12,985 nucleotides of DNA from a virus (IMGVR_UViG_2645727562_000001:1-12985); one strand, 5' to 3'; numbered from the stretch's first letter, positions 5,086 to 7,841 are shown. The notes: generated by a model from the sequence alone, not told the origin. A program made the numbers and translations.

Positions 5086-5131
5086 TCGCTTTGTCAGCGA
5101 CGTAGGACGAATGTCCATTGTGAAAATAGCG
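5086..5131 (-). promoter_or_regulatory. nutR: boxA-like CGCTATTTT and boxB hairpin with GACAA loop
   Basis: On the minus-strand transcript just after the cro stop: CGCTATTTT (reverse complement of 5123-5131) lies where lambda has boxA CGCTCTTAC, then UCGCU-GACAA-AGCGA (reverse complement of 5086-5100). The same hairpin recurs at nutL. The loop matches the P22-type boxB as recalled. Confidence 0.5.
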
Positions 5132-5138
5132 GTGTTAC

Positions 5139-5339
5139 TTATGCAGTTGTTTTTTTGTTACTTGGGAAGGGCTTTACCTCTTCCGCATAAACGCTTCCAT
5201 CAGCGTTTATAGTTAAAAAAATATTTCGGCCTGCATGAATGGCCTTGTTGATCGCGCTTTGATATACACCGAGATCTTTAGCTGTCTTGGTTTGCCCAAA
5301 GCGCATTGCATAATCTTTCAGGGTTATGCGTTGTTCCAT
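5139..5339 (-). CDS. cro: Cro repressor, lambda type
   Basis: 66-aa product matches lambda Cro as recalled across the full length ([65 protein letters not shown]), with one apparent K-to-N difference. Confidence 0.95.
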
Positions 5340-5363
5340 ACAACCTCCTTAGTACATGCAACC

Positions 5364-5392
5364 ATTATCACCGCTAGAGGTAAAATAGTCAA
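5364..5392 (-). promoter_or_regulatory. pR promoter driving cro
   Basis: Minus-strand -35 TTGACT (reverse complement of 5387-5392) and -10 GATAAT (reverse complement of 5364-5369), overlapping OR1/OR2 exactly as in lambda. Confidence 0.85.
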
Positions 5393-5429
5393 CACGCACG
5401 GTGTTAGATATTTATCCCTTGCGGTGATA
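5366..5429. promoter_or_regulatory. Right operator OR1-OR2-OR3, lambda type
   Basis: Three 17-bp operator half-palindromes: OR1 5366-5382 (TATCACCGCTAGAGGTA), OR2 5390-5406 (CAACACGCACGGTGTTA), OR3 5413-5429 (TATCCCTTGCGGTGATA). OR2 and OR3 match lambda; OR1 differs at one position from the canonical sequence as recalled. Confidence 0.9.
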
Positions 5430-5439
5430 GATTTAACGT
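5405..5439 (+). promoter_or_regulatory. pRM promoter; leaderless cI transcript
   Basis: Plus-strand -35 TAGATA (5405-5410) and -10 TAGATT (5428-5433), with the cI ATG at 5440, the lambda pRM arrangement in which the mRNA starts at the AUG. Confidence 0.8.
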
Positions 5440-6153
5440 ATGAGCGCAAAAAAGAAACCATTAACACAAGAGCAGCTTGAGGACGCACGTCGCCTTAAAG
5501 CTATTTATGAAAAAAAGAAAAATGAACTTGGCTTATCCCAGGAATCTGTCGCAGACAAGATGGGGATGGGACAGTCAGGCGTTGGTGCTTTATTTAATGG
5601 CATCAATGCATTAAATGCTTATAACGCCGCATTGCTTGCAAAAATTCTCAACGTTAGCGTTGAAGAATTTAGCCCTTCAATCGCCAGAGAAATCTACGAG
5701 ATGTATGAAGCGGTTAGTATGCAGCCGTCACTTAGAAGTGAGTATGAGTACCCTGTTTTTTCTCATGTTCAGGCCGGGATGTTCTCGCCTGAGCTTAGAA
5801 CCTTTACCAAAGGTGATGCGGAGAGATGGGTAAGCACAACCAAAAAAGCCAGTGATTCTGCATTCTGGCTTGAGGTTGAAGGTAATTCCATGACCGCGCC
5901 AACAGGATCCAAACCTAGTTTTCCTGACGGGATGTTAATTCTGGTTGACCCTGAGCAGGCTGTTGAGCCAGGTGATTTCTGCATAGCCAGACTTGGGGGT
6001 GATGAGTTTACCTTCAAGAAACTGATCAGGGATAGCGGTCAGGTGTTTTTACAACCACTAAACCCACAGTACCCAATGATCCCATGCAATGAGAGTTGTT
6101 CCGTTGTGGGGAAAGTTATCGCCAGCCAGTGGCCTGAAGAGACGTTTGGATAA
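5440..6153 (+). CDS. cI: CI repressor, lambda immunity type
   Basis: 237-aa product is near-identical to lambda CI as recalled, including the N-terminal HTH ([21 protein letters not shown]), the Ala-Gly autocleavage region (HVQAGMF) and the C-terminal LexA-like domain with catalytic Ser and Lys. Two apparent substitutions: MSA for MST and ILN for ILK. Confidence 0.97.
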
Positions 6154-6160
6154 CACGTAA

Positions 6161-6598
6161 ATGATTAAAGAACGTATTTCTTATATCATTCCGATTGCGA
6201 TGGATGAAGGCAACCCAGTAACTCCAGTTCTTATCTATGAAATGGATAAAGACTCCCATGAAGTGGATCTATCATTTGGCGCTTTTTTTATCGGCCTTAA
6301 GGCTACAAAAAAATATTCCATAGGCATTGAGGTTTTCAATGCTCAAGAAATACCGATACCAATTGACACAAAACTGTACTCCAACCATAAGTTTTTTACG
6401 GTAGCAGAAGCCAACGATGGAGAAACCATCGTATCAACTTCTATGAGAATTAACTTCCCAAGGGTGAAAATTATCAAGCCTGGGATATTCGAAGTTAGAG
6501 CATCACTGGTTAATCCTGATAAAGGCGAAGTAATTGATGTAAAAAGTTCGTTTTTTGACGTGAAGATAACAGGATCAGTTCGCGATGAGTTTAGATAA
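6161..6598 (+). CDS. Unknown soluble protein, 145 aa; first gene of the cargo cassette in the rexA position
   Basis: ORF starts 8 nt after the cI stop codon. Markedly AT-rich compared with cI. No transmembrane segment or recognisable catalytic motif; alternating hydrophobic pattern suggests a beta-rich fold. The downstream gene overlaps it by 14 nt. Confidence 0.6.
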   Translation: MIKERISYIIPIAMDEGNPVTPVLIYEMDKDSHEVDLSFGAFFIGLKATKKYSIGIEVFNAQEIPIPIDTKLYSNHKFFTVAEANDGETIVSTSMRINFPRVKIIKPGIFEVRASLVNPDKGEVIDVKSSFFDVKITGSVRDEFR

Positions 6599-6956
6599 CA
6601 AGGTTGCTCAGCTTCGTCCAAATCAAAACATATCTCGCCCAATTGGACACTATTCCACTGATGATGCATACTCACGGCATGGTGGAGGAAACGGCGGAGG
6701 TAACATGCTTGAGGCTAGAGTTGCAAAGCTAGAGTCTGATGTTGAATACATCAAGCGCGATCTCGCTGAAGTAAAGTCAGATATAAAATCTGTAGATTCT
6801 CGTCTGTCAGGTATTGAGACAAGCATTAGCTCAGCAAAAATCACCATCAAGGCATCTGCGGTCGTTGTCAGTTTCGTGTTCGCATTTTGCGCCTACATTT
6901 TTGGAAGTTATGTTTCCAAAATCCTTGATGCCTTAAACGGACTCGTTCTTAAGTAA
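6585..6956 (+). CDS. Coiled-coil protein with a single C-terminal transmembrane helix (XhlA-like architecture); second cargo gene in the rexB position
   Basis: The 123-aa ORF overlaps the upstream gene. An alternative ATG at 6705 is preceded by GGAGG at a 4-nt spacing and would give an 83-aa product starting MLEARVAKLESD. Features: Gly-rich low-complexity N-terminus (HGGGNGGGN), heptad-like coiled coil (LEARVAKLESDVEYIKRDLAEVKSDIKSVDSRLSGIE), then a hydrophobic anchor (ASAVVVSFVFAFCAYIFGSYV). Confidence 0.6.
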   Translation: MSLDNKVAQLRPNQNISRPIGHYSTDDAYSRHGGGNGGGNMLEARVAKLESDVEYIKRDLAEVKSDIKSVDSRLSGIETSISSAKITIKASAVVVSFVFAFCAYIFGSYVSKILDALNGLVLK

Positions 6957-6962
6957 CACACA

Positions 6963-6990
6963 ACCCGGCCTCAGCGCCGGGTTTTCTTTG
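6963..6990 (+). terminator. Rho-independent terminator of the cI-cargo operon (tImm-like)
   Basis: Stem ACCCGGC / GCCGGGT with a 6-nt loop, followed by TTTCTTTG, 7 nt after the cargo stop codon. The flanking sequence resembles the lambda region between rexB and OL as recalled. Confidence 0.6.
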
Positions 6991-7146
6991 CCTCACGATC
7001 CCCTTCACCCAATAACACATAACCAATTGTATTTATTTGAAAATTAATAGATACAACTCACTAAACATCGCAATTCAGATCTCTCGATCACCTCCCAAGC
7101 CACACACCCCTGCAAAAAAATAAATCTATATAAAAAACATACAGAT

Positions 7147-7209
7147 AACCATCTGCGGTGATAAATTATCTCTGGCGGTGTTGACATAAATACCACTGGC
7201 GGTGATACT
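7147..7209 (+). promoter_or_regulatory. Left operator OL3-OL2-OL1 with pL promoter, lambda type
   Basis: OL3 7147-7163 (AACCATCTGCGGTGATA), OL2 7167-7183 (TATCTCTGGCGGTGTTG), OL1 7191-7207 (TACCACTGGCGGTGATA). pL -35 TTGACA 7181-7186 and -10 GATACT 7204-7209. Matches the canonical lambda pL/OL sequence; pL reads rightward in this window. Confidence 0.92.
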
Positions 7210-7277
7210 AAACACATCAGCAGGACGCACTACTCACCAGGGCGGTGAATATACAACGATTCGAATATGAATCTACG

Positions 7278-7292
7278 GCGCTGACAAAGCGC
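7278..7292 (+). promoter_or_regulatory. nutL boxB hairpin (GCGCU-GACAA-AGCGC)
   Basis: Perfect 5-bp stem with 5-nt GACAA loop about 60 nt downstream of the pL start, matching the hairpin at nutR and the P22-type boxB as recalled. No convincing boxA is seen upstream. Confidence 0.55.
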
Positions 7293-7302
7293 AATAACCA
7301 AA

Positions 7303-7445
7303 GTGAACTTTGGGGTGTGGTGAAGGGTTCATGGACGGGAATATGTCGCACGTAAAGCGGCGAGGCCTGCGGGACTATTGCCGAATTGAAGTAGGCCGAA
7401 ACAGGTCGAAATGGGTCTCCCACCTACCACACCACCAAAGTTCAT
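7303..7445 (+). promoter_or_regulatory. Long-range stem in the N leader, adjacent to the N ribosome-binding site (RNase III-site analogue)
   Basis: TGAACTTTGGGGTGTGGTG (7303-7322) is complementary to CACCACACCACCAAAGTTCA (about 7425-7444) with one bulge, enclosing about 100 nt. The N Shine-Dalgarno GGAGG (7448-7452) lies directly 3' of the stem. Lambda has an analogous GGGGTGTGTG / CACACACCACC leader stem. Confidence 0.5.
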
Positions 7446-7457
7446 CAGGAGGTCTAT

Positions 7458-7841
7458 ATGACACGCAGAACTCAGTTCAAAGGCAATTCACGTTCTCGTC
7501 GTCGTGAGCGTTTAAAGGCAAAGGCATTAGCTAACGGCGTACTGGCCCGCGAAGAAGCAATAAGTTCAGAAGTATTACACCGCCCTACTCTAAGCAGAGC
7601 GCAGATTCAGGCTAAAGGTACTCACGAAACGCCTGAGCGCATAGAAGACGCTAAGCCAATTAAGTTCATGGCACAGGACGTGATCTGGCAACAGAAAGAA
7701 TACAGACGCAATCTGGAGAGAGCGGCCATTGTGTACGCGAATGAGTTTGGGCATAGGCAACCAGAAACTGGTGTATGTCTTCCAAATGTAGCTCTTTACG
7801 CGGCAGGCTACAGGAAATCAAAACAACTGACGGCGAGGTAA
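7458..7841 (+). CDS. N: N-family transcription antiterminator, non-lambda type
   Basis: 127-aa protein directly downstream of pL and nutL with GGAGG Shine-Dalgarno. N-terminal arginine-rich motif (GNSRSRRRERLKAKALA). C-terminus LPNVALYAAGYRKSKQLTAR resembles the P22 N-like (gp24) C-terminus as recalled. Not similar to lambda N. Confidence 0.85.
   Translation: MTRRTQFKGNSRSRRRERLKAKALANGVLAREEAISSEVLHRPTLSRAQIQAKGTHETPERIEDAKPIKFMAQDVIWQQKEYRRNLERAAIVYANEFGHRQPETGVCLPNVALYAAGYRKSKQLTAR

Follow-up and report, generated by a model that had tools for sequence, protein, structure and literature searches.

Layout of the immunity region

We analysed the immunity and early-regulation region of the viral stretch IMGVR_UViG_2645727562_000001:1-12985, in particular its repressor genes, the N antiterminator gene and the two N-utilisation (nut) sites. 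All coordinates are those of the whole 12,985-nucleotide (nt) stretch (hereafter the window), whose map direction is opposite to that of the conventional lambda map. An earlier interpretation made from the DNA alone (the sequence-only reading) had described positions 5086-7841 as a mosaic, in which lambda-type cI, cro and operators are flanked by a non-lambda N and by P22-type boxB nut sites. The region was aligned to lambda, HK97, mEp234, H-19B, 933W and P22. The features on which the interpretation depends are listed below.

4704-5000, minus strand: cII of the HK97/H-19B type, outside the lambda cassette (Pfam Phage_CII, E = 6e-32)
5086-5100, minus strand: nutR boxB, UCGCU-GACAA-AGCGA (TCGCTGACAAAGCGA), a 5-base-pair (bp) stem with a pentaloop; annotated as nutR boxB in EF120460
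5125-5146: pR-arm crossover zone, with the last cro codons, the stop codon and the first boxA bases
5139-5339, minus strand: cro, lambda type (Pfam Cro, E = 3e-35)
5366-5429, unstranded: oR1-oR2-oR3 with pR and pRM; oR2 and oR3 as in lambda, pR hexamers found by scan
5440-6153, plus strand: cI repressor, lambda type (Pfam HTH_3 and Peptidase_S24)
6962-6990, plus strand: Timm-like intrinsic terminator at the end of the cI operon (stem 6962-6983, 8 bp with 6 G-C pairs, then a T tract); Timm in EF120460
7147-7209, plus strand: oL3, oL2 and oL1 with pL (-35 at 7181-7186, -10 at 7204-7209; promoter scan 10/12); operators as in lambda
7215-7231, plus strand: crossover zone on the pL arm, (C)ATCAGCAGGACGCACT, which forms the initial 16 nt of the pL transcript and is common to lambda, H-19B and 933W and in part to P22
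7278-7292, plus strand: nutL boxB, GCGCU-GACAA-AGCGC (GCGCTGACAAAGCGC), folding as a 5-bp stem with a pentaloop; 15/15 nt as in P22 nutL boxB
7458-7841, plus strand: N antiterminator, HK97/H-19B/933W type, 127 amino acids (aa) (Pfam N_peptide, E = 1.7e-15; phrog_271)

Taken together, these features very probably form the module for immunity and early regulation in a lambdoid prophage whose host is Escherichia coli or a near relative of it, with the regulatory layout of phage HK97, that is, a lambda-specificity cassette set in a backbone of the HK97/H-19B/933W type. The cassette, of about 2.1 kb (from 7231 down to 5125), would comprise oL/pL, Timm, a cargo slot, cI, oR/pR/pRM and cro and would confer lambda immunity specificity, and the backbone around it would provide N, nutL, nutR and cII.

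Repressor, Cro and operators

As the sequence-only reading had claimed, cI, cro and the operators were of the lambda type. The repressor shared 235 of 237 aa with lambda cI and all 237 with HK97 cI, Cro shared 65 of 66 aa with lambda Cro, and five of the six operators were identical to those of lambda. The exception was oR1 (5366-5382), which carried a single G-to-A change (TACCTCTAGCGGTGATA here, TACCTCTGGCGGTGATA in lambda). Note that the same variant is common to HK97, mEp234, mEp332, HK244 and CL707, so that lambda's own oR1 is the minority form among them. At the DNA level, cI, cro, oR, oL, pL, pR, pRM and Timm were 96-98% identical to those of lambda (J02459). Apart from the one base in oR1, the six 17-bp operators have lambda sequence and spacing and overlap pR/pRM and pL, and together with cI and Cro they would place the region in the imm-lambda group; cI would thus be expected to repress pL and pR through lambda-type operators.

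N and the boxB hairpins

The gene downstream of pL encoded a member of the N family that differs from lambda N, in agreement with the sequence-only reading: it matched Pfam N_peptide, and a multiple alignment gave ~29% identity to lambda N. Its aa identity was 100% to the N proteins of HK97 (127/127), mEp234 and HK106, 98.4% to that of 933W and 97.6% to that of H-19B. A PDB sequence search with this N returned nothing.

Both GACAA-loop boxB hairpins were found exactly where they had been placed before, at 7278-7292 and 5086-5100. The nutL boxB was identical in HK97, mEp234, H-19B and 933W, and the nutR boxB in HK97, mEp234 and H-19B. In a scan of both strands of the 12,985 bases, these were the only two hairpins with a perfect 5-bp stem and a GACAA loop, and the same scan of the window detected no hairpin whose loop was of lambda's GAAGA or GAAAA type. 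Neither finding that would have refuted the sequence-only reading was therefore made: N and the nut sites differ from those of lambda, and homologous phages keep the hairpins, the distant ones with compensatory changes in the stems (see below).

We then compared N type and boxB loops among eight lambda-immunity genomes, including the window, with the following result.

lambda, HK544, mEp332, HK244, CL707: N of the lambda type; nutL/nutR loops GAAGA/GAAAA
HK97, mEp234, the window: N of the HK97 type; nutL/nutR loops GACAA/GACAA

N type and both loops agreed in all eight genomes, as expected from the earlier proposal that N is kept matched to its RNA targets.

Comparison with related phages

HK97 (AF069529/NC_002167) was the closest match in layout, sharing the operators with the oR1 variant, both boxB hairpins, the spacer hairpins of the nut sites (described below) and the cII type, with a DNA identity of 98-99% over 4662-6153 and 6966-7839. 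It differs in its cargo genes (gp49 and gp48) and in the nutR boxA, which is CGCTCTTTT in HK97 versus CGCTATTTT in the window. For mEp234 and HK106, DNA identity was 99% outside the cargo slot; they differ in the cargo, which consists of hicA, hicB and one further open reading frame (ORF), and in the loop of the nutL spacer hairpin, AGAGAT as opposed to GAATAT in the window. The records of these two phages (EF120460/EF120461) annotate pL, pR, pRM, oL1-3, oR1-3, Timm, boxA and boxB of nutL and nutR, and N at homologous positions.

H-19B (AF034975) and 933W (NC_000924) matched the window from the start of pL transcription and from the end of cro, at nutL in both phages and at nutR in H-19B, whereas their repressors, Cro proteins and operators were unrelated. 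Note that 933W was compared at nutL, its sequence stretch ending before nutR. Overall, nutL was identical in HK97, mEp234, H-19B and 933W except for the mEp234 spacer loop and single bases outside boxB in HK97 and 933W, and nutR was identical in H-19B and differed by one or two bases outside boxB in HK97 and mEp234. The cII protein, encoded beyond nutR, was identical at 91 of 98 aa to that of HK97 and at 90 of 98 to that of H-19B, compared with 33 of 102 aligned positions (~32%) for lambda. In addition to N and cII, lambda differs in having GAAGA and GAAAA boxB loops, a consensus boxA with a short spacer, and rexA-rexB.

Junctions between cassette and arms

On the pL arm, identity to lambda ended at 7231 and was interrupted only by mismatches at 7210 and 7212, which lie between the -10 hexamer and the transcript start (~7216, the +1 position from the mEp234 annotation). 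Since identity to H-19B began at 7215 and to 933W at 7217, the crossover zone was placed at 7215-7231. The corresponding leader of P22 starts with CATCAGCAGGACGC. On the pR arm, similarity to lambda continued from cro down to 5125, which is 14 nt past the cro stop codon (5139-5141), with mismatches at 5145, 5138, 5133 and 5127, and identity to H-19B ran from 5146 downward. The sequence-only reading had put the breakpoints around 7210 and right after the cro stop. Both estimates were correct to within ~20 nt, but lambda identity in fact reaches 7231 on the one arm, and similarity goes on for those further 14 nt on the other. Its more general claim, that the exchange points lie between the operators and the boxB hairpins on both arms, was borne out by the alignments, indicating that N and both nut sites were inherited together, outside the lambda-type cassette.

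A mosaic of this kind would arise by recombination in two short sequences common to lambdoid phages, namely the first 16 nt of the pL transcript, and the end of cro with the start of boxA. Because both junctions are promoter-proximal to boxB, such a cassette swap cannot unlink N from nutL or nutR.

Instead of one swap of a cassette into an HK97/H-19B-type backbone, two independent arm replacements (N-nutL on one side and nutR-cII on the other) could have taken place in a lambda ancestor. Each junction is a separate short common sequence, so that a single crossover at each is possible, and mosaicism is general among lambdoid genomes; at most 70% of the window is covered by any one phage or complete E. 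coli genome. However, both arms are of the same H-19B/HK97 type, and an intermediate with one arm replaced would have carried an N mismatched to one of its nut sites, a combination that was not present in the eight lambda-immunity genomes compared. Furthermore, in H-19B and 933W unrelated immunity cassettes are found between these same arms, so that the cassette is the varying unit. For this last reason we favour the cassette swap and consider two arm replacements improbable.

Relation to P22

The nut sites had been described in the sequence-only reading as P22-type, and in its strong form this would mean that the arms are a P22 module, with an N orthologous to gp24 and with nut sites that have a consensus boxA, a short spacer and full dependence on Nus factors. 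P22 (NC_002371) does share with the window a GACAA-pentaloop boxB on a 5-bp stem: the nutL boxB matches that of P22 at 15/15 nt, and the GACAA loop occurs at both nut sites here and at P22 nutR too. The start of the arginine-rich motif is also similar (GNSRSRRRER here, GNAKTRRHER in P22; shared pattern GN-x-[KR]-[ST]-RR-x-ER), and the last 33 aa of the two proteins are 67% identical. On the other hand, BLASTP with P22 gp24 aligned these C-terminal 33 aa only, and megablast found no DNA similarity to P22 across the nut regions or the 5' part of N. In P22, nut has the consensus boxA GCTCTTTA followed by an unstructured spacer of 11-12 nt, as opposed to the long structured spacer and non-consensus boxA-like elements of the window, and the N of the window is 98-100% identical to those of HK97, 933W and H-19B. 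The central part of the P22 protein and the P22 immunity region (c2, cro) are also unrelated to those of the window. We therefore regard a P22 origin of the arms as very unlikely. Orthology of N with P22 gp24 was rejected, as the similarity was confined to the last 33 aa rather than extending over the full length. The description as P22-type thus holds for boxB and for the start of the arginine-rich motif, but the protein and the nut architecture as a whole are of the HK97/H-19B/933W type. For P22 itself, the C of the GACAA pentaloop was reported to be looped out and contacted by the bound N peptide (PDB 1A4T; PMC12550061).

It is hardly credible that the two GACAA hairpins arose by chance or are generic structures rather than nut sites: although their function is read from sequence and short hairpins with GNNNA loops are common (~2 expected per window), exact-GACAA hairpins were expected at a mean of only 0.032 in 500 dinucleotide-preserving shuffles (none of which had at least two) against the two found, both lie on the correct transcribed strand at canonical positions, just downstream of pL or cro and upstream of the first terminators, their sequence is the same as in the H-19B nutR used in experiments and in P22 boxB, and their stems are conserved with compensatory changes in relatives.

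Architecture of the nut sites and leaders

The remaining elements of the two early leaders were as follows.

5039-5056, minus strand: 7-bp hairpin between nutR and cII, from the fold of the cro-cII interval; its equivalent is a 'putative tR' in g341c
5105-5116, minus strand: nutR spacer hairpin GGAC-AUUC-GUCC, between boxA and boxB (-5.0 kcal/mol, z = -3.2)
5123-5131, minus strand: boxA-like element of nutR, CGCUAUUUU (CGCTATTTT), 7/9 against CGCTCTTTA; overlaps the pR-arm crossover zone
7226-7234, plus strand: putative boxA of nutL, CGCACUACU (CGCACTACT/CGCATTACT), 5/9 against CGCTCTTTA; the putative boxA of EF120460 and the nutL start in the 933W record
7258-7273, plus strand: nutL spacer hairpin GAUUC-GAAUAU-GAAUC, followed by CUACG and then boxB (fold z = -2.5)
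7303-7326 paired with 7423-7445, plus strand: long-range stem of the N leader (fold z = -4.2; 0/200 shuffles as stable)

Each nut spacer in the window thus contains a small hairpin followed by CUACG. The distance from the boxA-like element to boxB was 28 nt at nutR and 43 nt at nutL, with the hairpin in between; a long spacer with a hairpin is the H-19B design. The spacer hairpin is the feature specific to H-19B, in which it has reportedly been termed the 'reducer', and H-19B N reportedly acts without boxA, NusB or S10 (Neely and Friedman, 2000). At nutL, the stem of the spacer hairpin was invariant across nine phages and the loop was variable (AGAGAT, AGTGAT), and the nutR spacer hairpin was kept in H-19B, HK97, Oslo, g341c, MII_001 and SI8. 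An Rfam scan of 4400-8400 with E values up to 1 gave nothing relevant, the sole match being a chance plant microRNA, and there was no curated nut or boxB family.

The boxA-like element of nutR occupied the same position as the annotated nutR boxA of mEp234 (CGCTCTTTT), and a boxA was not recognisable at nutR in more distant relatives. For nutL, the sequence-only reading had stated that no boxA is evident; this is right in that there is no consensus boxA, but a weak annotated candidate (5/9) does exist. The candidate sits in a conserved 5' leader, and its lambda counterpart, CGCACTGAC, is not lambda's boxA.

Just 5' of both spacer hairpins, the bases follow the pattern [CU]ACAA[CU] (ACAAC at 7253-7257 and, on the minus strand, ACAAU at 5121-5117). 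This pattern was better conserved across the family than the boxA-like elements, and it may be the real single-stranded recognition element since it resembles the CACAUU that follows boxA in lambda nutR. The pL leader also has an extra small hairpin, UCACC-AGGGC-GGUGA (7234-7248, plus strand), between the start site and the nutL spacer hairpin, which was conserved in all relatives, with one G-U change in MII_001, and has the equivalent CACC-AUGAA-GGUG in lambda.

Downstream of nutL, the long-range stem of the N leader stops immediately upstream of the ribosome-binding site of N (AGGAGG, 7447-7452), and both of its arms change together in g341c. The lambda N leader has the same long-range arrangement, CTTTGGGGTGTG...CACACCACCAAAG. 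The stem is probably the counterpart of lambda's known stem for processing and translation control.

Proposed course of early regulation

After induction, pL and pR would fire and the nascent RNAs would be expected to fold the GACAA-loop boxB hairpins. N would then bind boxB by its arginine-rich motif and recruit NusA to the spacer, as suggested by its near-identity to systems that have been studied. The H-19B N protein with its nutR (boxA, spacer, boxB and two hairpins) is an experimentally working antitermination system, with boxB bound by N and the spacer by NusA (PMC3526286; PMC4499122), and the H-19B nutR/tR1 region has been used as a Rho-dependent terminator (PMC3526286). In the window, the hairpin at 5039-5056 may belong to the tR1 termination region, which N would have to override. 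RNA polymerase modified by N would pass this region before cII and, on the left arm, the candidate terminators described next. Two intrinsic-terminator-like hairpins were observed at 8552-8569 and 8590-8609 (plus strand), downstream of N and the next ORFs, and are candidates for tL terminators.

Some considerations weigh against the interpretation as a lambda cassette in an HK97/H-19B/933W-type backbone. The nutL site has no convincing boxA (5/9), and it is doubtful what part the annotated 'boxA' plays, given that the corresponding segment of lambda is not lambda's boxA. The immunity specificity, the activity of N and the terminators it overrides are all derived from sequence identity, and the direction and number of the recombination events are not recoverable from present sequences.

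By alignment, the arrangement is already known from HK97 (AF069529), mEp234 (EF120460) and HK106 (EF120461), and the GenBank records EF120460 and AF069529 annotate the same parts as those found in the window. The records EF120460/EF120461 of wild lambda-immunity phages belong to a paper by Degnan et al. (2007, Mol Microbiol 64:232). A literature search for an explicit statement that HK97 is homoimmune with lambda gave nothing useful. The stretch 4600-8300, including the cargo, was 97-99.5% identical in nine complete E. coli genomes, enteropathogenic E. coli E2348/69 among them, whereas the whole 13-kb window was a unique mosaic, of which the best phage record covered 46% and the best complete E. 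coli genome 70%.

The region is a textbook example of modular phage evolution, in which the repressor switch travels as a cassette and the antiterminator stays together with its two RNA targets, although these lie on opposite sides. Both the principle and the exact combination have been in the literature and GenBank since 2000-2007 (HK97, mEp234, HK106), and therefore no new question is opened by it. The practical use lies in annotation, as the prophage can be labelled lambda-immunity with an N specificity of the HK97/H-19B type.

N recognition in distant relatives

In more distant relatives of N, from the Salmonella phages g341c and SI8 and the Enterobacter phage MII_001, the protein was 67-70% identical and the arginine-rich motif was altered to GSAAGRRRERRAAL. 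The nut stretches in these relatives are at the following positions.

L012: 3816-3932 and 1517-1601
L014: 3780-3896 and 1259-1343
L013: 3733-3849 and 2627-2711

All three phages keep the spacer hairpins and the CUACG linker. Their nutL boxB stems show compensatory changes, from GCGCU/AGCGC to CGGCU/AGCCG in g341c and SI8 or to AGGCU/AGCCU in MII_001, and both boxB loops are GAAA tetraloops, which change together with the arginine-rich motif. Note that the covariation was read directly from the sequences because a nine-phage MAFFT alignment of nutL put the one-base deletion in the loop of the tetraloop variants in the wrong place. These changes point to several RNA specificities within one N family. 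For this N subtype, a new boxB specificity was predicted from the protein alone in the genome paper of phage epsilon34 (PMC2629481). If the HK97-type N family does contain both, the GACAA-pentaloop and GAAA-tetraloop specificities would form a natural series for the study of how arginine-rich motifs switch RNA recognition. Phage Oslo, whose N is 87% identical, has an odd nutL boxB, GCTCCGTCAACGAGC.

The cargo pair between cI and Timm

Between cI and the Timm-like terminator, the window has two overlapping cargo ORFs.

6161-6598, plus strand: first cargo ORF, 145 aa (phrog_5893, function unassigned)
6585-6956, plus strand: second cargo ORF, 123 aa (phrog_6136, function unassigned)

They occupy the slot that is taken by rexA-rexB in lambda, by gp49/gp48 in HK97 and by hicAB in mEp234. 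A separate pair of boundaries surrounds them: similarity to lambda, HK97 and mEp234 ended at the cI stop (6150-6153) and returned where the Timm stem begins (6962), and the cargo itself (6154-6961) had no similarity to these three phages. By this pattern, the cargo is a separate mosaic unit. Homologues in the phage collection were found only in the Salmonella phages epsilon34, g341c and NM-3, in which the pair also lies directly after the repressor gene.

The two proteins had no Pfam match above threshold, no NCBIfam match and no meaningful PADLOC match. The 123-aa protein is predicted to form a coiled coil with a C-terminal hydrophobic, presumably membrane, helix, and a PDB search with it gave generic coiled-coil matches only. 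For the first protein, AlphaFold run on the single sequence gave an all-beta model of low confidence (mean predicted local distance difference test score, pLDDT, 57.7), too low for a fold search.

The location of the cargo between cI and Timm makes co-transcription with cI in the lysogen probable, and an exclusion function expressed in the lysogen is a reasonable guess from position alone. We tentatively suggest that the two genes may be an undescribed prophage exclusion or abortive-infection pair in the RexAB/HicAB slot; a lesser possibility is that the HK97-type N family contains at least two natural specificities. In any case, the cargo pair is the only uncharacterised piece of the region.

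Features adjoining the region

A strong terminator-like hairpin with a T tract was observed at 4728-4755 (plus strand), in the 3' end of cII and antisense to that gene. This stretch was 79% identical to lambda, with 92% identity to P22 just upstream, and the hairpin most likely serves to terminate an oop-like antisense RNA. Further along, an O-like replication gene (3567-4532, minus strand) contained a tandem in-frame 22-aa repeat of two copies and a partial third, which is probably the iteron-bearing origin region within that gene.

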